NCBI GenBank assembly: GCA_050950765.1
Contig: JBMNIF010000002.1
Coordinates: 384,001-448,000, forward strand
DNA: 64,000 nt
Direction of reading: 5' to 3'
Source: Bdellovibrionota bacterium
GTDB taxonomy: Bacteria > Bdellovibrionota_C > UBA2361 > JAAYZI01
In this document: piece after piece, positions 4,245 to 14,189 of the stretch
Numbering within the stretch: the stretch's first letter is position 1
Layout of the letters: each line of letters starts with the position of its first letter
Program-made: the position numbers and the translations under genes
Notes under the pieces: generated by a model
Told to the model about the DNA's origin: nothing
The model's input: only the letters and a program-made list of their open reading frames with translations
The model's database searches: none

Positions 4245-4850
4245 ATGACTTTAAATATAGAAGTTTTTTATTCATTTCAAAATCCGTACTCATATCTTGT
4301 ACTCGATAAGGTTTATGATATTGCAGACAACTACGATGTTGAGCTCTTGTGGCAGCCCTTCTCAGCCAGAGCCTCAGGGCAGCAGATACCAGCCTCCTCA
4401 ATCATACCAGAGAAGATCACCTATATGCTTGAGGACACAAAGCGTTCTGCTGCAGAACAGAACCTCCCTTTTGTTTACCCTGAAACGTGGCCGGAGTCAG
4501 AGTTTGATCCAGGGCGTGTTACCCGTGGTGCAGTAGTCGCTAACGATATGGGGATATTAAAAGAGTACAACTACAAGGTCTTCCAGAAATGGTGGGGCTT
4601 AGGAGAAGATCCTAACGATGAGAATTTCATGGCTGAATTAGCTGATGAATTAGATATCGATCTCGGCGATTTTCTTAGTAAGATCTCCAGCACAGACACT
4701 AGGGATCGTGTTAAAGGGATTTATAAAAGAGGTCGTAAGCTCGGTATCTTTGATACGCCCACCTTCTTAATAGATAAGGAGCGCATCTTCGGGCTTGATA
4801 AGGTTTCATACCTAGAGCAACGTCTGACCGCTATGGGATTAAAAAAATAA
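4245..4850 (+). CDS. DsbA-fold HCCA isomerase / kappa-class GST family protein
   Basis: IEVFYSFQNPYSYL at the N-terminus with no CxxC; C-terminal GIFDTPTFLIDKERIFGLDKV. Confidence 0.8.
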   Translation: MTLNIEVFYSFQNPYSYLVLDKVYDIADNYDVELLWQPFSARASGQQIPASSIIPEKITYMLEDTKRSAAEQNLPFVYPETWPESEFDPGRVTRGAVVANDMGILKEYNYKVFQKWWGLGEDPNDENFMAELADELDIDLGDFLSKISSTDTRDRVKGIYKRGRKLGIFDTPTFLIDKERIFGLDKVSYLEQRLTAMGLKK

Positions 4851-5342: not shown

Positions 5343-5921
5343 ATGCAGAGAACAGATTCTAATCATTCACAATCAGGTCTCGCCCTCGTGGAGCTCGCTC
5401 TACTTATACCCGTTTTTATTATTACCCTGTACGGTATAATAGACGTTGCAGATTTTCTAAACGAGCACTACAAGATAAGCCTTATCGCATACGAAGGTAC
5501 TCGCTTCGCCTCACATGCAGAGAAACTCGAGGCAGGAACGTGCGTAAAAAATGGCGCAGAAGCGATCAGTTGTGAAAAGATCACCTGCTCAACTGACACC
5601 ATCAACGCAACCACCACCTGCACACCTTGCACAAGTGAGAGGTGTAAAGCAACACTCCCCGTTCACAAAACTATCTTTGATAGGATTGACTCCTTACTTA
5701 CAGCACAGTACGGCGGCATCCCAGCACCTATTGAAGATATCCCCACCCGCCGCACCGTAACCTTTCAACAATCAAAAGCTGGGATCCCGATGGTAAGTAT
5801 TACCATCTCCGTGCCGCATAAAAGTTTTTTTGGAAAGTTTTTTACTAAAGATGGCACCGTAGTTGCTTCAGAAACAACAGCCTATTTAGTAAACACCCAA
5901 GAGTTTAATAAGCAAGGTTAA
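5343..5921 (+). CDS. TadE/TadF-like minor pilin with a small Cys-rich insert
   Basis: Prepilin motif QSG|LALVELALLIPVF...GIID, then AYEGTRFA; 6 Cys in the central insert. Confidence 0.85.
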   Translation: MQRTDSNHSQSGLALVELALLIPVFIITLYGIIDVADFLNEHYKISLIAYEGTRFASHAEKLEAGTCVKNGAEAISCEKITCSTDTINATTTCTPCTSERCKATLPVHKTIFDRIDSLLTAQYGGIPAPIEDIPTRRTVTFQQSKAGIPMVSITISVPHKSFFGKFFTKDGTVVASETTAYLVNTQEFNKQG

Positions 5922-5932
5922 GAGGTTTTATT

Positions 5933-8900
5933 ATGGTTAAAACAGATAGCAATCATCAACAACACGGTGCAGTATTAGTCGAGTTTGCTCTGGGAGGACT
6001 ACTCTTTTTTACATTGATCTTTTCTATGATCGACCTCTCGGTCTTCTTCTATAACAGATCCGCTATGCGTAATGCAGCACAACAGGCCTTAGAGTTAGCC
6101 TCTGTCATTGAAGGGCTTGACGTTGCTGAATCAATAGATCAATCAGGCAATATTCAGAGAGATTATAAGTACGCAGATGAAAAAATTATACAAAAAGCAG
6201 AAGAGCTCCTATCTTCTTTTAAACTTGGTTCATTAAGGATAAGGAGCAACTCCAATGAAACGATTAACTTTCGCGGTGAAGAGAAACCTCTCGGTATCTA
6301 TCTGGATGTTCCAGGTGGAGATACGATCGCTGAAAGAAATACTAGATTGGATTCAGAACCGATAAAGATTACGATTCTCGCTAAATACAAAGCGAGCACC
6401 CCCTTTCTGCCGGAGCTACCTATCGTCGTAACGGAAGCCGCTTATAGAGAGCTCCGCACCAAATCAAATCTGCCCGTAGCGCTAGACTGTAAAGGCAATC
6501 CGATAACAGATCTCTCAAAAGCTCCTACAACTTGCCCCTGCACTGAATCTTCAGACCCGAATGCTGTTTTAACAACAGGAAGCACCTCCTGTTCATGTCA
6601 AGTAAACGGGAAAAGTATTAGTAACTATAAATACGACCCCGTTACAAAGAGTTGCGGGTGTTACGGAGGAAACGGCCTCCTTAATGGAGATGTTTGCATC
6701 TGTGCACTGAAAGAAGACGGCTCTGACTGTACAGAAGATAATCAATATCTAGATGGTGCCAACTGCTCTTGCAAACAGAAAGAGTGTAAAGGAAGTAATC
6801 AAGTTGTAGAAAAAAACTCTGGGAAGTGTCTCTGCGGCATCACCTCTGGAGACTGCAAAGAAGATTATAGGCTAGTTAAAACAACGTTGGAGGACGGCAT
6901 TCAGTGTAATTGCGAACCGTGCGGAGAGAATGCACACCGTTACGGCTTTAAAAATGAAGATGATGACACAGAAAATGATGATGGCGAAACAGATGAAGGA
7001 CTCTTTAATACCTGTGTCTGCGATGCGCCGGAAACGTGTGGCGATGACATGATAATGCTTCCGTACAATAAGAACAAACAAGATGGCGCTACTATCGGAT
7101 GTCTTTGTCAATCTTGTCATGGTGGAAAAAGAGGTGATGTAGATAAAGACGGCATCGCTAATGAATGTGATTGTAGTGGCGTAACCTGCGCTTCTGGAGA
7201 ATGGAAAGATCCGGAAACTTGTGCCTGTATAGCTTGTAGCACTAACTCAAATGCAAAGATGGAAGCTCCAGAAGGTGCCACAAGTGCAGAGGATTGCACC
7301 TGTCAGTCCTATACCGTCTGCCCAAACAATCAAAAAATGGATGCAAGCTGCATCTGCACATCTTGCGGAACTAACAAACATAGGTATGGAACAAAAGATA
7401 GTGAGAAAGAAGAGAAGAAATTCAACACCTGTGTCTGTGACCCTTACACAAAGTGCGGCAAGAATCAGACTATGGACAAAAATTGCAACTGCAAAGATTG
7501 TGGAAGCCATGCAACAAGAGCTAAGGATAGTAACAGCTGCGTCTGTATTAACGACATTACAAACCCAAATCAATATACGCCCTCAGTAAACGGAGGTTGT
7601 GCCTGTAACACGACTGACAGTAACATTGAATACAAAAACTGTACAGGATCAGGGAGTTATTTTAATACAAAAACTTGCCGATGTGAAAGTTGTGGAGTCA
7701 CAAACTCTACCCGTAAAGATCCGCAGGCTGAAACTAACGGTGTAAAGAGTGATAACGTTTATAGTTGTAGTGGCGAAGAGTGCGGTTGTATCTGCTTAAG
7801 TGGTAATGAAATCTCTAACGGAAGCTGCGGCTGTAATGACATATCAACGTACAATTGTGGAAAATCGGGCAATGGAAACTGGTTTTGTGAAAAAGATTGC
7901 AGTTGTAAAAGCTCAAATATATCCGATTACAATTGCAGCTGCGCTATAGATAAAAGTCATTGCACTAATAAATCATATCCATACTTTGATGAAATAAATT
8001 GTGAGTGTAGTAGCGCTTGCCCAGATCAACACAACTGTGAATGCGCTCTAACAGAAGCTATCTGCGGGGGTGATTTTGACCCGAATAAGTGTCAATGTTG
8101 CGGAAAGTATGCTCACTACGATGAAACAAGTGAGTCTTGTGTTTGTGATACAAATTACTCAGGTACTAATCCATACAGTAGTTGTGAATGTAGTAGAGAG
8201 TGTAATGCAGCAGGCGGTTATTACAGAGAAGATCTAAACTGCTCTTGCCAGAAATGCGGAAAATTTGAAGTTGTTACGCAAAGTAAAGATGCTTGCGAGT
8301 GCAGATACGACAACGATCCTTCCACGAGAAAAGGGGCAGCTCCCGACAACCTTTGCAATACAGGACAGGAGTTCGATTACGAGCACTGTACCTGTACCTG
8401 CCCACCTGATACGGATGAAACATGGTCAGAAGCTGAGTGTAACGCTATCGGAGCTATCTATAACTACGACACCTGCGACTGCCAACGTCCTGAAGGAAAT
8501 CACGATTCAGAAAAAAGTTGCGTAGGAGCTGATTGTTGTGTTGGCGAAGAGGTTTATATAAATGACAAGTGTGTTTGTGAAGATAAAGATAAGAAGGCTG
8601 CTGCATGTAAAAACAATGGAAGAACTTTCTCCGAAGAGTTGTGTTCCTGCGGCGGAGGTGGTGGCGGCGGTACTTGCGGTGTTTGGACAGAGGCACAACA
8701 TAATGCAAAACGTCAAGCTTGTAACGAAGCAGGTAAGATGTATAGCGCATCGAGTTGCAGCTGCTACTCTTGTAGATACAATCAGAGCTTTACAAATAAT
8801 AACGGTGTTTACAGTTGCCAATGTAATTTAGAGAGTAAAACGGTAAAAGATCGCCGACAAGTTTGTGAAAATAACGGCGGAACATTTGATACTACTTATT

Positions 8901-11131
8901 GCCGGTGTAGTGGTGGAGAGGGTACTTGTAATAATAATATAGCTGAAAACTTAGAAACGGGGCAACGTAAAGTCTTAGATCCGACTAGTGGTGTTTGCCG
9001 ATGTCAAAACAACTTAAAAGAGGATCCGACAACACATATCTGCAGTTGTGATAATAACCTGTTTGGAATATCAGGATCTAAAAATCAGTTAAAACTAAGT
9101 GGTAATTTCTGTGTTTGCGAGAACAACGGAACTCTTACTAACGGCAGTTGTAGCTGTACAGATAATCAAGTAATCGGTGCAAATAATACGTGCGTCTGTA
9201 AAGATACACTCAATACGATAGCAAACTCTCCAACTTGCACCTGTAAAAACAATCTGGTTATGGGGTCAGACGGTATCTGTACCTGTAAGGGAGACCAGAA
9301 ATTAGAGGCAGGCTCCTGTGTCTGTGAAAATCCATTGATGAAGATCGATTCTTCAAATAACTGTATCTGTGATTTATCCGGCTTAACGGACGAAGAGAAG
9401 AAAGAGCTGATTCCGTGCGGAAAAGGTGAAGTGATTAACGAAACTTTGTGCGGTTGTTCAAAAAGAGAGGCTACGGCAGGTGAAGAAGACGGTACAGGCG
9501 AGTGCCCGCCGAATACTAAACTTGCTCAAGATACTGATGGACGGTGGGTCTGTAAATGTGAAAATGAAGCTCTTACAGCAGAGGGAGAGAATTGTCTGTG
9601 TGATATAACTGAAGGTGGCGCAGCCCGTAGCAGTTATCTCGCCTGTGTTGGAGAGGCAGGAAATGAAACAGGTCGAGACTTTAACACAACCTCTTGTAAA
9701 TGTTGTACAGGTCAAGAAACATACGATCAGAACTTAAAATCTTGTATCTGCGAAGCGAGTGTAGCTGAAAGTTGTAATTATGGAGAGAAAGGTCCCTTCT
9801 CTTCCTTAAGGTGTGATTGCTGCGGCAGAAATGAAAAACTTACGGAGAATAACGATTGCACCTGTGATGAGGAAAAAATACGGGATTTTTGTCAACTTAC
9901 AGGGAAAACATACATACTAGGAAGTTGCAGCTGCGGAGAAAAGTGCGGAGTCAGTAATTTAAAGAAGCTAAACCTTGCTACAAACACCTGCGAATGCCCA
10001 AGTAACGCAAGTGCGCAGTGTGCTGAAGGGATCGCTTATAATGCAGATGCCTGCCAGTGTTGTAGCTCAAAATATCAGGAAGTAAAAAATGGTGCCTGTG
10101 TCTGTAAAGATACAGCAACTTTAAAAGCAGAGTGTGTTAATGAAGGAAAACCTATTGCAGGTTGCGGTTGCGGAGCAAGTTGTACAAACGGTAAAGTTTT
10201 AGATACCAACCCTGCAAGCACAAAATACGGAACTTGCGTTTGTGATGAGACAGCTCTTGATGCCTATTGTGCAGATCAAAAGAAACCTGTTGCGAGTTAT
10301 AATTCTTGTACTTGTCAGAACACAATTTGTTCTAATAACTTTACAGCAAGTGGAACAGGCTGCATCTGTGATACAACACAAGGAATTGCAAAAGCTGCAA
10401 AAGACAACTGCACTGGTGAATTCAGTGAAACATCATGCTCTTGCTGCGCAAATGAAAATTATGAACTTGATGATACTACCGGTCAATGCACCTGTAAAAA
10501 AGCAGGTACTCCTTGTGATGAGAACGGCTATTACAGTGATGCTTGCGACTGTAAAACGTGTCAAGGAAATGAAAAGGTAAATGAAACCTTTAGCGGCTGT
10601 GAATGTACAACTGGAACAGCTGAAGGTACAAGTCAAAGCACTGCCAACTGCGGAGAAAATCAGAGGTTTGACACCGCAACTTGCAGCTGTGTTGATTGTG
10701 GAGGTAAATACCGTTCTTCCGAAGATGGATTAAGTTGTGATGTTTGCCCGACTGCAGAAGCAAAAACACTTTGTAGCGGCGCTAACTATGTACTGGATGA
10801 AAATAGCTGTAATTGCATAAGGTGTAACGAACTTCGTACTGAAGATGCTACTGGACTTAAGTGTGAATGTAAAAACAATGCAGGCGACTACTGTACAGAG
10901 AGACGTAATGGAAGTGTGCCTGACGAAGATTGTAACACCTGCATCTGTACTGAAGGTTTTATCAAAATGACAGTTTATGACCTATCTGGGAAAGCGTACG
11001 ATATCTGTGTTGATGATGACTACGCAGGGTGCATACGAGATGAGGAGGACAATATCTACAACTGTAATGGTACTGAGTATGTCTATAATACACATACTAA
11101 TTCCTTTGAAGACTACTCTCCACTTGAATAG
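5933..11131 (+). CDS. Giant TadE-like pilin fused to about 1550 aa of CxC-rich repeats (putative pilus adhesin)
   Basis: QHG|AVLVEFALGGLLFFTLIFSMID prepilin N-terminus with NAAQQALELA; from about residue 186 to the end a CxC motif recurs every 15-25 aa. Confidence 0.85.
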   Translation: MVKTDSNHQQHGAVLVEFALGGLLFFTLIFSMIDLSVFFYNRSAMRNAAQQALELASVIEGLDVAESIDQSGNIQRDYKYADEKIIQKAEELLSSFKLGSLRIRSNSNETINFRGEEKPLGIYLDVPGGDTIAERNTRLDSEPIKITILAKYKASTPFLPELPIVVTEAAYRELRTKSNLPVALDCKGNPITDLSKAPTTCPCTESSDPNAVLTTGSTSCSCQVNGKSISNYKYDPVTKSCGCYGGNGLLNGDVCICALKEDGSDCTEDNQYLDGANCSCKQKECKGSNQVVEKNSGKCLCGITSGDCKEDYRLVKTTLEDGIQCNCEPCGENAHRYGFKNEDDDTENDDGETDEGLFNTCVCDAPETCGDDMIMLPYNKNKQDGATIGCLCQSCHGGKRGDVDKDGIANECDCSGVTCASGEWKDPETCACIACSTNSNAKMEAPEGATSAEDCTCQSYTVCPNNQKMDASCICTSCGTNKHRYGTKDSEKEEKKFNTCVCDPYTKCGKNQTMDKNCNCKDCGSHATRAKDSNSCVCINDITNPNQYTPSVNGGCACNTTDSNIEYKNCTGSGSYFNTKTCRCESCGVTNSTRKDPQAETNGVKSDNVYSCSGEECGCICLSGNEISNGSCGCNDISTYNCGKSGNGNWFCEKDCSCKSSNISDYNCSCAIDKSHCTNKSYPYFDEINCECSSACPDQHNCECALTEAICGGDFDPNKCQCCGKYAHYDETSESCVCDTNYSGTNPYSSCECSRECNAAGGYYREDLNCSCQKCGKFEVVTQSKDACECRYDNDPSTRKGAAPDNLCNTGQEFDYEHCTCTCPPDTDETWSEAECNAIGAIYNYDTCDCQRPEGNHDSEKSCVGADCCVGEEVYINDKCVCEDKDKKAAACKNNGRTFSEELCSCGGGGGGGTCGVWTEAQHNAKRQACNEAGKMYSASSCSCYSCRYNQSFTNNNGVYSCQCNLESKTVKDRRQVCENNGGTFDTTYCRCSGGEGTCNNNIAENLETGQRKVLDPTSGVCRCQNNLKEDPTTHICSCDNNLFGISGSKNQLKLSGNFCVCENNGTLTNGSCSCTDNQVIGANNTCVCKDTLNTIANSPTCTCKNNLVMGSDGICTCKGDQKLEAGSCVCENPLMKIDSSNNCICDLSGLTDEEKKELIPCGKGEVINETLCGCSKREATAGEEDGTGECPPNTKLAQDTDGRWVCKCENEALTAEGENCLCDITEGGAARSSYLACVGEAGNETGRDFNTTSCKCCTGQETYDQNLKSCICEASVAESCNYGEKGPFSSLRCDCCGRNEKLTENNDCTCDEEKIRDFCQLTGKTYILGSCSCGEKCGVSNLKKLNLATNTCECPSNASAQCAEGIAYNADACQCCSSKYQEVKNGACVCKDTATLKAECVNEGKPIAGCGCGASCTNGKVLDTNPASTKYGTCVCDETALDAYCADQKKPVASYNSCTCQNTICSNNFTASGTGCICDTTQGIAKAAKDNCTGEFSETSCSCCANENYELDDTTGQCTCKKAGTPCDENGYYSDACDCKTCQGNEKVNETFSGCECTTGTAEGTSQSTANCGENQRFDTATCSCVDCGGKYRSSEDGLSCDVCPTAEAKTLCSGANYVLDENSCNCIRCNELRTEDATGLKCECKNNAGDYCTERRNGSVPDEDCNTCICTEGFIKMTVYDLSGKAYDICVDDDYAGCIRDEEDNIYNCNGTEYVYNTHTNSFEDYSPLE

Positions 11132-11159: not shown

Positions 11160-13112
11160 ATGAAAAGAGAAAGAGATAACGGTGGTTTTTTGGTAACATT
11201 TGCTATCCTACTTCCGATCGTAATAGGGTTTGTAGCTTTTGCGATAGACCTTAGTATCGGGATGGAATCAGGGAGACAAGCTAGAGACTTTACTAAACTA
11301 GCCACCTTAAAAGCTCTTGAAGGGTACTACGCTTGTAGCGCCTCCTCTTGTCCGACCCATGATGACAGGATGAAAGCTGCTAGAAGAGGGGCTCAAAGCA
11401 TTTTAAACAGCTTAGAAAACGAGACTGTCGGAAAAAACAGCGAGCGGATTGTTGACGCAAAAGCAGAGCTCAGCACCAGTCCTGATGCCCAATTTAGATT
11501 AAAAGCAGGGTGTTGGACCACTGCTGGTTTTGCAGAACGTGGAACCAGTAATTGTAGTGAAGAGCATAATCCAGGGGCGATGCAGATTGAGGGTAAATAT
11601 CCCTTTGTAACGGAAGCTATTTTCGGTAAGATCTTCGGGAAAGACCACTATGCACAATATGTGCGGGTGACTTCACAAGTTATACCACGCCATATCTACT
11701 TCTTAGTTGATGCTTCTGGATCTGTTGTAAGAGACAACTTTAAAACAGAGCGGTATGAAGATTTCGCCTACTACGATCAAGCTGTAACAGGGGGAGAGGG
11801 GCTACCCACTCATACATTTTGGTATAATTCCAAGCTTCAGAAATGTGATAAAGAAACTCCTTCAGAAAATGATGCTATCTGTAAAGAGATGTATGTAGCA
11901 AAAGCTATCCTTAACGATACCGATTATGATGAAGCTCTATACCCCCACCATCCGAATCCAAGTAGATATCCGACAGGAGTAAATTCAGGCGGACATCAAG
12001 TGTATAGAATCAATAAGATAGTCTCTCCTCAACCTTTAACCGATATCTTTGCTGGAGTTAATAAGGCTATCCACACAATTAACGATCATAAAATTGCAGG
12101 CGATAGGGTCGGCGTTATCTTTTTTACAAATAAGATATCTTGGCCAAGAATGACTAACTTAACTGATGATTTAGATTATTTAGAGAGATTTACAGACTTT
12201 ACTACTAATAAAAACATCTTAGATGATACAAAAGAGATAAAGCCTAACGGCGAAGAGACCTTAAAAATCAGTACGGAAGGACAACCTGCCGTAGAAGTTT
12301 CTCAAATATTACCCTCAACAGGTTTTGAGAAAGCTATCCGTCACGGACTTTTCCCGGTAGAGCCACCCGCTTTTACAAATATTAAGGAAGCTTTAACGGC
12401 AGCATTAGATCAATTTGATAAAAATGATGATGGAAGTGATGTAGCTCGCTCCGTTATCCTTTTTTCTGACGGTATTCAGAATTGTGCTAAGGATCCTTGT
12501 AGTGGAGGCAAATTCTGTGGCAATACGTATCAATGTTATATACAAGGTATGCCTGAACTACGAAATATCGTTATGGCACGTATGACAGGAGAAAATCTGA
12601 TTCCGTTTCATATGTTTCCTATCGGAAACAGTGTTGAACCGCACACAAAGATCATCTTAAAGAAAGAAGGGGGGTGTTACACAGATTCCAATTTTAGAAT
12701 AGAAACCGATAGTAGTATCAAAAAAGATTCACTGGGCTTCGTTTTAGGCTCAACCGATGGAAGTGGCAATTCTTGTCGTATTCAAAATACTTATAGTACA
12801 GATCCAACTTGTAGCGCTGCTTTTAAAAATGATGGATTTCATCAACCACTTCAAGACCTCTATGAGTTAGCTGTCGCTACGCAAGGAGTTTGGGCACCTC
12901 TTCGTCCACAAGGAACGGGAACGAACTGTTCAAAGAGCACGGATCAAAGTTGTATTGACGATAGCGGTAATAAGAGAGAGATTCGTGTACACGACCCGTT
13001 ATGTCGTACATACGCCGAGCAGATTGACGATTATATGCAAGAGATCGTCGGTATAAATCCATTTCGTGTTGTTGAAACCGTTAAGATCCCTGAAGATATG
13101 AATAAATATTAA
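11160..13112 (+). CDS. TadG-like pilin with a vWA (MIDAS) domain
   Basis: NGG|FLVTFAILLPIVIGFVAFAIDL; FLVDASGSV (DxSxS), DRVGVIFF, TNIKEAL, VILFSDG. Confidence 0.85.
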   Translation: MKRERDNGGFLVTFAILLPIVIGFVAFAIDLSIGMESGRQARDFTKLATLKALEGYYACSASSCPTHDDRMKAARRGAQSILNSLENETVGKNSERIVDAKAELSTSPDAQFRLKAGCWTTAGFAERGTSNCSEEHNPGAMQIEGKYPFVTEAIFGKIFGKDHYAQYVRVTSQVIPRHIYFLVDASGSVVRDNFKTERYEDFAYYDQAVTGGEGLPTHTFWYNSKLQKCDKETPSENDAICKEMYVAKAILNDTDYDEALYPHHPNPSRYPTGVNSGGHQVYRINKIVSPQPLTDIFAGVNKAIHTINDHKIAGDRVGVIFFTNKISWPRMTNLTDDLDYLERFTDFTTNKNILDDTKEIKPNGEETLKISTEGQPAVEVSQILPSTGFEKAIRHGLFPVEPPAFTNIKEALTAALDQFDKNDDGSDVARSVILFSDGIQNCAKDPCSGGKFCGNTYQCYIQGMPELRNIVMARMTGENLIPFHMFPIGNSVEPHTKIILKKEGGCYTDSNFRIETDSSIKKDSLGFVLGSTDGSGNSCRIQNTYSTDPTCSAAFKNDGFHQPLQDLYELAVATQGVWAPLRPQGTGTNCSKSTDQSCIDDSGNKREIRVHDPLCRTYAEQIDDYMQEIVGINPFRVVETVKIPEDMNKY

Positions 13113-13121
13113 GATATAACC

Positions 13122-14189
13122 ATGTCTAAAAAACTTACTTTCTTCCTATTTGCCTCATCCTTTGTTATTGCTCTCGGATTCATTGCGCTAATCTCCTTTA
13201 ACAACGAACGTCTTGAGTTACAAGTTATTCTCCCGAAAAGTGCACAAGAAATTCCCCTACAATTATCTCACTTTGAAAAATCACACCGTAACGTTCGTTT
13301 TCAGATCAGATATATAGCAGACACTGAATTTAAAAGAGAGTTACACGATCTACCCATTAAAGCAGATATCGTATTCCTACCTTCAAAGCAGTGGCTAAAA
13401 TTTACTGATAGCAACAGTTACGTTAAATACAGAAACTCCATTTTAACCTCACCAACCGTTATCTTAATGAATAAGAAACACGCTAAAAAATATGCAAGCA
13501 AACGTGTTAAACTTAACGCTAAAAAATTTATGCGAGGTGTAACTCTAAAAAGCTTAACCTTCTCCATGCCAAGTCCGAAGAGCTCTGCTCTCGGTATGGC
13601 GACCTTCTTCGGCTTTATTGAAGCTCTTGTGCAAGATAAAACACTCCGTCCCCAACAAACAGTACCGGAAGGAACCTCCTCAACAAAGGAACGTATCCTC
13701 TCCCCTTATGAAGTGTTGTCACTAAAGAAAGTTCAAAACTTTCTTCAAAGCATAGATATAAATGATACAGACAATCTACTTGCAGCTTTAGAAAACAACA
13801 CTTACGATGGTGTTGTTACAACGGAGCAGCAAGCTGCTCTACTTAATAAAAGACTAAAAGCAGAGAAGAAAGAAAGTTTCGCCATCTTATATTTTAAAGA
13901 GGCCGATCTCGCCTTTAATCTTACTTTAGGTTTTATTGATAAAGGTGATCCTGAAAAGGAAAACGTCTTTAACGAGTTACGCACCTTTTTAACCTCACCT
14001 GAAGTTCAAAATAACTTTTCACACGAACTTTATCGCACCCGACTAGGAGATAACTACGACCCTAAAGATTGGCAAGGGCTTCTTCCCCATTGGCACCCCT
14101 ACACAGAGTGCCCCTTTGGTCACTCAAAAATTGTAAAACTTATAGCCTCCTTCCAAGAGATTAGAAAAGAAGTAGGTGGGGCTGAATAA
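13122..14189 (+). CDS. Membrane-anchored substrate-binding-fold protein (vWA-associated type)
   Basis: N-terminal TM; ADIVFLPS, SILTSPTVILM, FSMPSPKSSALG, YDGVVTTEQ, FLTSPEVQ resemble SBP-like proteins; 9-bp gap after the TadG-like gene. Confidence 0.6.
   Translation: MSKKLTFFLFASSFVIALGFIALISFNNERLELQVILPKSAQEIPLQLSHFEKSHRNVRFQIRYIADTEFKRELHDLPIKADIVFLPSKQWLKFTDSNSYVKYRNSILTSPTVILMNKKHAKKYASKRVKLNAKKFMRGVTLKSLTFSMPSPKSSALGMATFFGFIEALVQDKTLRPQQTVPEGTSSTKERILSPYEVLSLKKVQNFLQSIDINDTDNLLAALENNTYDGVVTTEQQAALLNKRLKAEKKESFAILYFKEADLAFNLTLGFIDKGDPEKENVFNELRTFLTSPEVQNNFSHELYRTRLGDNYDPKDWQGLLPHWHPYTECPFGHSKIVKLIASFQEIRKEVGGAE

Follow-up and report, generated by a model that had tools for sequence, protein, structure and literature searches.

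Can a bacterial pilin carry a tail of some 1550 residues, and what would such a tail do? The question is raised by a single open frame at positions 5933–11131 (+) of the window, the 64,000-nucleotide stretch of DNA that was analysed. The frame encodes 1732 aa, and all features described below lie on the same strand (+).

Layout, integrity and spread of the giant pilin

The protein begins with a class III leader peptide (5933–5968, residues 1–12), with predicted cleavage after Gly12 and Glu at +5. The leader consensus is given as G/A-X4-F/E in the accessible text of PMC12607857, and G12 and E17 are invariant in all four sequences of alignment A1. The pilin head follows (5969–6484, residues 13–184), and TadE (PF07811) matches residues 12–52 at 36.6 bits against a Pfam cut-off of 22.9. 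Leader, G-x4-E and a hydrophobic alpha1 are thus all present, as in TadE/TadF-type minor pilins, and the original prediction of a long Cys-rich tail on a bacterial pilin is borne out in one frame. In the AF2 model the head block (pLDDT 76–98) consists of a long helix at model residues 2–46 plus a sheet. A fold search with the head returned pilins at Z 4.9–5.3 (PilX 5.3, PilJ 5.2), tied with unrelated folds and therefore weak. For the first model as a whole, the lists of fold neighbours were taken up by unrelated alpha/beta folds that matched the head.

The tail of C-x(9-12)-C-x-C hairpin modules occupies 6485–10948 (residues 185–1672) and contains 70 CxC motifs; its full disulfide pairing is a prediction. 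The duplications expected within it were recovered, with HRYG and FNTCVCD, and likewise NNG-TF, occurring twice each (z 8.1 and 5.2 over Cys-preserving shuffles); the stronger is an old duplication at 6914–7567, residues 328–400 versus 476–545. Two of the five internal repeat pairs are not above shuffles. A Gly7 hinge foreseen near 8650 lies at 8651–8671 with helix-hairpin units on both sides. At 9005–9370 is a block of short two-Cys hairpin units; the block itself had been foreseen as a run of CxC-x-NN units, of which only 4 of 8 start with xNN. The C-terminal cap and stop (10949–11131, residues 1673–1732) comprise three Cys, an aromatic hairpin and a terminal Glu; the alignment of the cap is ragged. 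The same genome holds a collinear 1562-aa paralog with identical gene order and collinear sub-blocks, among them the hinge (z 6.5) and the short-unit block (z 7.5); the blocks termed early, late and cap do not exceed shuffles (z 1.0–2.9, a range that takes in the two internal pairs mentioned above).

Misassembly of head and tail was considered and is rejected. One contig of run X12, from another study, covers 5857–9685 gap-free at 58 substitutions, the sequence being carried on to 11408 by overlapping contigs; a contig of run X7 covers 5731–7107. Contigs from two other studies therefore bridge head and tail, and the collinear paralog also argues against a joining artefact. Neither joints nor indels within the frame occur among the matches listed from four runs, in which no single piece spans the whole operon. 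Long near-identical DNA repeats are absent, the internal repeats of the gene being short and diverged (longest family 28 nt). Recent foreign DNA is rejected on native GC and GC3 (GC3 0.344 vs 0.347).

The search for TadE plus Cys-rich fusions elsewhere proved productive: 95 of the best 150 library clusters share the architecture of TadE head and Cys tail, at 291–1732 aa, the giant pilin being the longest. Of 60 scanned relatives, 59 pass the TadE cut-off and 4 pass that of PF03128. The tail-bearing heads form one clade (98/95), and the CxC module is found on this one pilin lineage in at least 12 genomes of the class. The slot carries CxC, Thr/Pro or DUF4215 tails; since all are extended linker types, a role as spacer or tether is suggested. 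No paper or described family for such Cys-tailed TadE pilins was found in the literature searched. Homolog searches by word index returned the query alone, both for the entire protein and for the P0022 tail from a relative, which is a weak negative with repeats so divergent. The ESM Atlas gave no usable match for the tail; for relative P0010 its matches, at 0.88, were all generic TadE clusters.

Predicted cysteine pairing and fold of the tail

Residues 185–1732, from position 6485, contain 202 Cys in 1548 aa, that is 13.0%, in agreement with the 13% or so first counted in one segment. CxC occurs 70 times against 26.1±4.3 expected (maximum 40 in 1000 shuffles), and C-x(9-12)-CxC 43 times against 2.9±1.6 by chance. 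The CxC half of the predicted CxC/CxCxC repeats is thereby upheld, and the four quoted repeat units were all found in place, whereas strict CxCxC is no commoner than in shuffles (2 occurrences against 3.3±1.9). Nor do the units continue unbroken to the end of the protein: the last of the CxC motifs closes at residue 1672, leaving 60 aa for a separate cap, and a 30-residue acidic loop devoid of Cys lies near residues 337–355. Pfam found no family on the tail at E≤1, and four tail sub-segments gave a single match, below cut-off. The suggested PF03128, EGF-like and furin-like profiles have no match on the giant pilin, nor has TIGR02232/DUF4215; EGF-like, furin-like and TIGR02232/DUF4215 are also absent from the 60 relatives in Pfam.

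The cysteines could be paired in disulfides or could bind zinc or other metals, as zinc-ribbon staples, a metal sink or a redox wire, which might suit an anaerobe. The number of Cys after alpha1 is even in 87 of the 95 family members (p 7e-18), against 60 of 111 control genome ORFs, and in all 42 pilins selected for tree building, a set that left out the one odd-Cys gene of the 12-genome locus survey. Counts modulo 4 fall at 2 in 53 members and at 0 in 34, with multiples of 4 or 3 not enriched. Even counts without an excess of 4n point to about 101 disulfides rather than Zn, and such pairing of the 202 Cys is strongly inferred from the parity. The genome encodes a VKOR-DsbA fusion and a second DsbA for oxidative folding. 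An upstream DsbA-family gene (4245–4850) was discarded as an oxidase, since its CXXC motif is absent. CxC and CxxC motifs do occur in the tail and the habitat is anaerobic, as metal binding would want; yet CxxC is under chance (18 vs 26), His is scarce (12), the tail is extracytoplasmic, the counts show no metal-like multiples and VKOR-DsbA is at hand. Metal stapling, part of the original prediction, is thus extremely unlikely. The species comes from anaerobic digesters, so that making 101 disulfides would need an electron sink, a point against this reading.

The AF2 models (mean pLDDT 81 and 75, pTM only about 0.5) render the tail as a chain of hairpin modules. Together with the Cys parity of the family and the oxidase genes, they support the extended disulfide-stapled filament that had been proposed. 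In the fold searches the best structural neighbours are extracellular disulfide ladders, all of them eukaryotic or viral domains, with weak matches (best Z 5.0, TM ≤0.17). Meckelin gave a Foldseek E of 2.4e-4 and Z 5.0 over 62 residues (rmsd 4.1, TM 0.15), TNFR bears a weak likeness to the hairpin modules, and a single-sequence PDB search with the hinge region returned only RNase K6, at E~0.3.

These neighbours invite the idea that eukaryotic proteins, of BR3P/VEGF type or from protist surfaces, were the source or the model of the repeats, which would then attach the cell to a eukaryotic host, for instance an anaerobic protist. VEGF-B167 is indeed the sole match at E≤1 (E 0.06) when the family profile A6 is compared with PDB sequences, and relatives P0022 and P0102 carry 14 and 12 strict CX10CXCXC units. 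However, every score is below significance, GC3 is native, the module sits on one pilin lineage across the class, homolog searches with two tails gave the query alone, and small disulfide hairpins converge easily. The tail is moreover acidic (234 D+E vs 135 K+R), while the VEGF heparin-binding domain is described as very basic in the accessible part of PMC3568127. NxS/T sequons are at chance level and evidence of a eukaryotic partner was not found, so a eukaryotic source is quite improbable and the proposal of eukaryote mimicry was not sustained.

Tip operon, Tad machinery and probable placement of the tail

In a tip-type operon of the order tadE-tadE'-tadG (vWA/MIDAS), the giant-pilin gene takes the middle place. 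Gene 1 (5343–5921) encodes a short TadE-type minor pilin of 192 aa (PF07811 26.9 bits) in the first-gene TadE clade (98/95 support). Downstream lies a TadG-like pilin (11160–13112) with a vWA domain (VWA_2 27.4 bits) and an intact MIDAS (D184, S186, S188, T406, D437), whose D, S, S and D are invariant in 28 of 28 rows and whose T/S is kept in 27. A second TadE together with a TadG-vWA with MIDAS is the gene set of a Tad tip complex (TadEFG). The fourth gene (13122–14189) encodes a membrane-anchored solute-binding-protein-like product with 25% identity (E 5e-31) to its counterpart in the paralog operon; it matches only the first ~340 aa of that 541-aa protein, which itself matches SBP_bac_11. 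Promoter and terminator scans were at shuffle level, Rfam gave 0 hits within the window, and RNA run X20 contributed four short low-depth contigs over the operon, which do not demonstrate transcription. The arrangement recurs: in a survey of 12 genomes, a DxSxS vWA gene adjoins 14 of 18 CxC pilin genes, with 5 of 23 loci lacking a CxC pilin under the filter used; a genome-contig scan with TadG gave only 3 loci.

The genome has two TadA/B/C/CpaB/TadZ loci (TadA and TadZ being assigned by the best family below its cut-off and gene order), Flp pilins, one prepilin peptidase and three TadE-TadE-TadG clusters. It also has non-flagellar T3SS export genes (SctV-like, SctJ, extra SctR/T/U) and FHA genes. 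Multiple tip clusters beside such export genes, with only two secretins and none for a T3SS, correspond to the gene content of the Myxococcus predation system Kil/T3SS*, judged here by its export genes. Bdellovibrio invasion requires Tad (10.64898/2026.07.08.737194). This lineage is probably predatory, judging from its genes.

We consider it probable that the giant pilin, as the middle minor pilin, fills the TadF position in a TadE/TadF/TadG tip complex on a Tad (type IVc) pilus, with its tail as an extended contact tether. After Sec insertion, the leader would be cleaved by the single prepilin peptidase, as the motif suggests, and the 202 Cys would be oxidized in the periplasm by VKOR-DsbA/DsbA. 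The tail is predicted to fold as beads on a string, made up of small hairpin and helix-hairpin modules together with the Gly hinge and the terminal cap. Its extended reach might be roughly 100 nm, a rough estimate from the dimensions of disulfide ladders. Synteny and published trimer models suggest that alpha1 would join TadE and TadG in a helix bundle at the pilus tip. The tail, next to the MIDAS adhesin TadG, could then extend through capsule or matrix and, resistant to proteases, serve as a tether or feeler that makes contact with prey, partner or surface; an adhesion or contact role is plausible from the operon context. Profile searches found no recognisable ligand-binding domain in the tail, and no RcpA-type secretin came to light (see below); both count against the tether, as do the weak fold matches and the low pTM. 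Several alternative tip operons with Tad and non-flagellar T3SS genes may form a predation machine like Kil/T3SS* of Myxococcus.

Alternatively, Tad may build only a short periplasmic pseudopilus, or the pilin may stay membrane-anchored, so that the tail is a periplasmic scaffold or cargo arm working with needleless T3SS export. A dedicated RcpA/CpaC secretin was not found with PF13629 and PF00263 in the source genome (94% complete), and none of 124 class genomes has a PF13629 match over cut-off. With PF00263, 60 of 61 genomes yield no more than two secretins; in the source genome both belong to T2SS and type IVa loci. Immediate neighbours of one Tad locus are an SctV-like gene, kinases and an FHA gene, and passing a tail of 180 kDa would tax any channel. 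On the other hand, the enormous variation in length and sequence among the family is typical of exposed proteins, the characterised MIDAS vWA partners are surface adhesins in the accessible text of PMC12607857 and PMC12428579, and PilQ or GspD could be shared, like the peptidase in Bdellovibrio. A periplasmic arm is therefore rather unlikely, and the Tad pilus may use a very divergent outer-membrane channel.

The tail could also be no adhesin at all, serving instead as a variable decoy or shield, which would hide the pilus tip from grazers or from phages that bind pili. Besides the missing binding domain, the evolutionary swapping of tail types speaks for this. So do the strain differences, at least 18 in the frame among 40 listed rows of 135: none of the 6 located before residue 900 alters the protein, 7 of the 12 located after residue 1480 do, and Cys is never affected. 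Nevertheless, the conserved cap with terminal Glu and the sub-blocks shared with the paralog suggest specific roles, and a shield is quite unlikely. Glu is terminal in 45 of the 95 family members, but in just 6 of the 55 remaining hits and 137 of 1543 ORFs of the genome. Overlap with a Shine-Dalgarno sequence is an insufficient cause, because the next start lies well past the stop in the window and at several loci; elsewhere in the family it may contribute.

With the contact tether as the preferred reading, the rule of tip customisation in Tad pili would extend to a second slot, the middle-pilin C-terminus, with long interchangeable linkers. A 1732-aa pilin with about 101 predicted disulfides would place a heavy load on oxidative folding and on crossing the outer membrane, the class having yielded no Tad secretin. 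For this uncultured class, related to Bdellovibrionota and known from anaerobic digesters, the family also provides a marker, together with the hypothesis of Kil-like contact predation.

Relation to known systems

The predicted resemblance to Balbiani ring 3 and VEGF holds as a likeness and fails as family membership, and any homology is hypothetical. The BR3P/CXCXC group (PF03128; the VEGF-C/D silk homology domain and VEGF-A165/B167 heparin-binding domain) has the C-x(9-12)-CxC spacing in common with the tail, and the predicted hairpin and helix-hairpin modules align with the VEGF heparin-binding domain (1kmx) over 50 of 55 residues (Z 2.9, rmsd 3.6). The giant pilin differs in having a single strict CX10CXCXC unit, no Pfam match and an acidic rather than basic tail; it falls outside PF03128, to which relatives P0022 and P0102 belong by their sequences. 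The likeness is below significance, and the two may have converged. The origin of the animal BR3P "silk homology" repeat is called unknown in a review (PMC5816233). Bacterial, expressible BR3P-like repeats would allow a direct test between a prokaryotic relative of the animal module and convergence. It is a long shot that the module is homologous to the BR3P repeat and the class its prokaryotic reservoir, with ~100-nm disulfide tethers on secretin-less Kil-like Tad tips and the terminal Glu possibly latched to the TadG MIDAS.

The Cys-rich domains of meckelin, TNF receptors and class C GPCRs are, like the tail, elongated disulfide ladders of small beta-hairpins, but they belong to eukaryotic membrane receptors without a pilin anchor, and the likeness (TM 0.15) is a local analogy only. 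The myxococcal Cys-rich repeat (TIGR02232/DUF4215) and Thr/Pro linkers are borne by relatives in the same slot of the same pilin lineage; their motifs are unrelated to those of the giant pilin.

The closest counterparts in organisation are the Myxococcus KilLMN tips (PMC12075869) and Caulobacter CpaJ/CpaK/CpaL, a Tad tip complex (PMC12607857). As far as the accessible portions of these sources go, TadEFG trimers are modelled as interchangeable pilus tips with disulfides (PMC12075869), and the systems share with ours three adjacent prepilin genes, disulfides (predicted in ours), a third pilin that is large and either modular or of vWA/MIDAS type, more than one paralogous tip cluster in each genome and an association with needleless T3SS genes, known here from export genes alone. 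By the same portions, the large modular domain there is on the TadG/KilN pilin, whereas here a tail of repeats, up to 1550 aa long, is borne by the middle pilin, and the source genome differs in that no RcpA secretin was found. In the accessible text of PMC12075869, Streptococcus sanguinis PilB and PilC also use a pilin moiety as an anchor displaying an extra tip module; theirs, however, are compact vWA or lectin domains, not a disulfide chain of ~70 units.

The giant pilin and its repeat unit

The window protein, of 1732 aa, is encoded by a single open frame at 5933–11131 (+). TadE (PF07811) is recognised on residues 12–52 (36.6 bits, cut-off 22.9), and the Pfam check proposed for the tail returned no family at E≤1. 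All 202 cysteines lie within residues 185–1732, where they make up 13.0%, as the original prediction had counted in one segment. In Cys content the ORF ranks top of 1031 genome ORFs of at least 300 aa (median 1.2%). The tail is acidic. Of the CxC/CxCxC repeats proposed for it, CxC is borne out (70 versus 26.1±4.3 in shuffles) and CxCxC was overstated (2 versus 3.3 expected); neither the latter nor CxxC (18 versus 26) nor CC (6 versus 26) is enriched. The actual repeat unit is C-x(9-12)-C-x-C, found 43 times versus 2.9, with another Cys 0–3 residues later in 16 cases. The quoted units, the hinge and the duplications were all located, but the repeats do not reach the C-terminus unbroken: the final 60 aa form a separate cap.

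The ORF is not an artefact. The window's own genome (G000) contains another operon of identical gene order, which encodes a 1562-aa paralog (G000:C2:554240–558928). The two proteins match above Cys-preserving shuffles in the head (z 25.6), the hinge (6.5), the short-unit block (7.5) and the next block (7.5); three further blocks do not exceed these shuffles. At least half of the sampled window words are present in 18 of the 24 sequencing runs listed, mostly from digesters and bioreactors. Six of these 18 are possible sources of the window DNA, and the four runs compared lie outside these six. One contig of run X12 covers 5857–9685 gap-free and one of run X7 covers 5731–7107; no joint and no in-ORF indel was seen among the rows listed for the four runs. 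The collinear paralog and the joint-free contigs speak against a misassembly of pilin and tail. GC3 of the ORF is 0.344, versus 0.347±0.044. Differences reach 26 per 645 nt at 9659–10303 versus about 1.3–1.5% in adjacent X12 contigs, and among the 18 listed (40 of 135 rows) those changing an amino acid lie solely beyond residue 1480, a weak hint that the distal part of the tail may be diversifying.

A family of Cys-tailed pilins

A profile of four heads and first repeats, searched against 1.84 billion representatives, gave 119 matches at E≤1e-10. Tails reaching 8% Cys and holding five or more CxC occur in 95 of the best 150 matches, a share raised by design since the profile contained Cys columns. 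These members span 291 to 1732 aa, the window protein being the longest among the matches listed. The TadE cut-off is passed by 59 of 60 relatives scanned, and that of PF03128 (CXCXC) narrowly by four of the 60 (16.7–17.1 versus 15); strict CX10CXCXC units number 14 in relative P0022 and 12 in P0102. None of ten relatives looked up carries a name. In the class, which coincides with the phylum in the taxonomy release used (124 genomes), the family alignment matched 21 genomes at E≤1e-25, some through the head only. The 23 loci read hold 18 CxC pilin genes in 12 genomes, which answers the original suggestion to look elsewhere for TadE fused to Cys-rich parts; a recognised vWA gene adjoins 14 of the 18. 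We found no published description of TadE with cysteine-rich repeats or of CXCXC on bacterial pili, in a search that covered mainly freely accessible papers, and to that extent this is not an already well-described family.

Almost every genome of the order has TadE (89 of 91). In other members the middle-pilin slot is occupied by DUF4215/TIGR02232 repeats or by stalks that are rich in Thr/Pro and tipped with a small Cys part. A tree of 42 heads has a branch (98/95) that leaves all 34 tailed pilins on the same side, and tail types mostly track lineage, with two changes for CxC and three for Thr/Pro. A middle pilin with 13 DUF4215/TIGR02232 repeats (L015:1603–4083) is nested among Thr/Pro heads at 99/99, a case of tail swap; tails do get exchanged, though seldom. 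In the one further genome of the host's taxonomic family (85% complete) the tail is of the Thr/Pro kind, and a search at E≤1e-25 found no CxC version there. At L031 (G029:C235:6000–24000), L016 and L019, two to three TadE-TadE'-TadG operons stand in tandem, and their middle pilins carry mucin-like Thr/Pro stalks of 200–330 aa that terminate in small tips with an even Cys count. A separate conserved family of long TadE-like pilins (650–900 aa, about 17–23 Cys) occurs in many genomes of the order (G000:C2:911349–913301; L030, L034, L027, L020).

Probable cysteine pairing, cap and predicted fold

The Cys count after the membrane helix is even in 87 of 95 members (p 7e-18), compared with 60 of 111 genome ORFs with at least 12 Cys and 43% of randomly truncated tails. 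Modulo 4, 53 members are at 2 and 34 at 0, and the counts are flat modulo 3. The window protein has 202 and the paralog 160, plus one in the leader. In the odd-count member P0111 (L084:1034–2731, G109:C228) the profile match runs on past the stop, and the gene is likely to be a broken one; a vWA gene was not recognised next to it. Kinship was rejected as the source of parity, as members share <50% identity and differ in repeat number. Parity is indirect but strong evidence that the cysteines would be completely paired in disulfides across the family. Of the disulfide or metal stapling originally envisaged, the former is thus favoured; that the tail binds metal is very improbable, given even counts with no 4n excess and flat modulo 3.

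Many members finish in a three-Cys aromatic hairpin cap. Glu is the terminal residue in 45 of 95 members, versus 6 of 55 other matches and 137 of 1543 genome ORFs; the tail background is 5%. The window gene lies between those of a 192-aa TadE pilin upstream and a TadG-like pilin of 650 aa downstream. The latter includes a vWA domain, whose MIDAS D, S, S, D show no variation in 28 of 28 aligned relatives. Since the terminal carboxylate would be next to this invariant MIDAS, one may speculate about a latch or a pilus-to-pilus link. The fourth operon gene (13122–14189) encodes a product about 190 aa shorter than its paralog-operon counterpart, without the C-terminal vWA-like part. Just upstream of the operon, a DsbA-family (PF01323) gene at 4245–4850 has no CXXC motif, and therefore its product is probably not a dithiol oxidase.

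With repeat registers approximate in both alignments, AF2 modelled residues 13–451 (81 rows; mean pLDDT 81, pTM 0.52) as a helix of 45 residues followed by an alpha/beta head and short beta-hairpins, and residues 1414–1732 (56 rows; pLDDT 75, pTM 0.51) as helix-hairpin modules alternating with hairpin modules. The latter model resembles meckelin (E 2.4e-4, TM 0.15; Z 5.0 over 62 aligned residues, rmsd 4.1) and, at Z about 3, the cysteine-rich domains of class C GPCRs and TNFR. It also aligns with 50 of 55 residues of the VEGF heparin-binding domain (1kmx) at Z 2.9 and rmsd 3.6. With the family profile A6, VEGF-B167 alone appeared at E≤1 (E 0.06) among 177,635 PDB sequences. Sequence and structure point the same way, and none of the resemblances is significant; the segment-wise modelling originally proposed thus yielded hairpin modules and no significant neighbours. 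The VEGF domain is very basic (PMC3568127), in contrast to the acidic tail. According to a review, the CX10CXCXC domain is of unknown origin (PMC5816233), and BR3P repeats are found from cnidarians onward (10.1101/2022.09.19.507521). By membership the window protein belongs to the TadE/F-type tip pilins, and it is BR3P-like through resemblance only. Adhesion directed at eukaryotes is improbable, and so is the eukaryote mimicry first suggested.

Machinery and comparison with known systems

G000 (2.64 Mb, 94% complete) also has a third TadE-TadE-TadG cluster and one long TadE, two TadZ-CpaB-TadA-TadB-TadC loci, Flp pilins, one prepilin peptidase, a VKOR-DsbA fusion and a second DsbA. Nine Flagellin_N matches are dispersed across three contigs. 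By eye, other large secreted-type Cys-rich proteins include thrombospondin-3-like, RCC1-like and further repeats (G000:C3:2634–8078, C2:1241165–1252140, C2:783734–793831, C1:116023–121572, C2:154268–156352), and surface proteins rich in disulfides appear to be a major outlay of this anaerobe. That the tail is a shield is, like the eukaryote-directed role, improbable. A 1258-aa ORF at G000:C2:136131–139907 (−) has an N-terminus that we take to resemble Cas12a.

Only two secretins were found in G000, in T2SS (GspD-like) and type IVa pilus (PilQ-like) loci. No RcpA-type secretin was found there or class-wide, although Tad core genes are present; PF13629 exceeds its cut-off in none of the 124 genomes, and 60 of 61 sampled class genomes have at most two secretins, as a rule just two long ones. 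As no dedicated Tad secretin was found, a role of the tail in the periplasm is conceivable but unlikely. The prepilin motif, operon, family, parity and machinery genes are established. In the most economical reading, which we consider rather probable, the tail serves as a long and stable tether or feeler at a TadEFG-type Tad pilus tip. The prepilin leader would be cleaved and the protein built into the TadEFG tip; the tail, predicted to fold as a chain of hairpin modules, may be displayed on the surface, serving contact.

Bdellovibrio invasion requires Tad, which shares PilD (10.64898/2026.07.08.737194), and is assisted by a MIDAS adhesin (PMC12428579); the Caulobacter CpaJKL model includes a MIDAS vWA (PMC12607857). 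Herrou et al. (PMC12075869) report four interchangeable disulfide-rich KilLMN tips that cooperate with a needleless T3SS, additional tips (Figs 23–26), and TadEFG trimers modelled in other systems. Besides the flagellar one, G000 has two SctR/T/U clusters, L098 (G000:C2:257500–269000) and L099 (G000:C5:52500–57500), which look non-flagellar, with SctJ, SctQ-like, FHA and TPR genes (SctJ and FHA in one of the two); no T3SS secretin was found with them. The Tad locus L042 (G000:C3:601265–616592) has two tandem CpaB genes and is immediately followed by an SctV/FlhA-like gene; genes for Ser/Thr kinases and an FHA protein lie at its flanks, as does a phosphatase-like gene, a layout reminiscent of Kil/T3SS* coupling. 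In KilLMN/TadEFG as described (PMC12075869) the modular domain is borne by TadG/KilN, whereas in the window operon the Cys tail is carried by the middle pilin.
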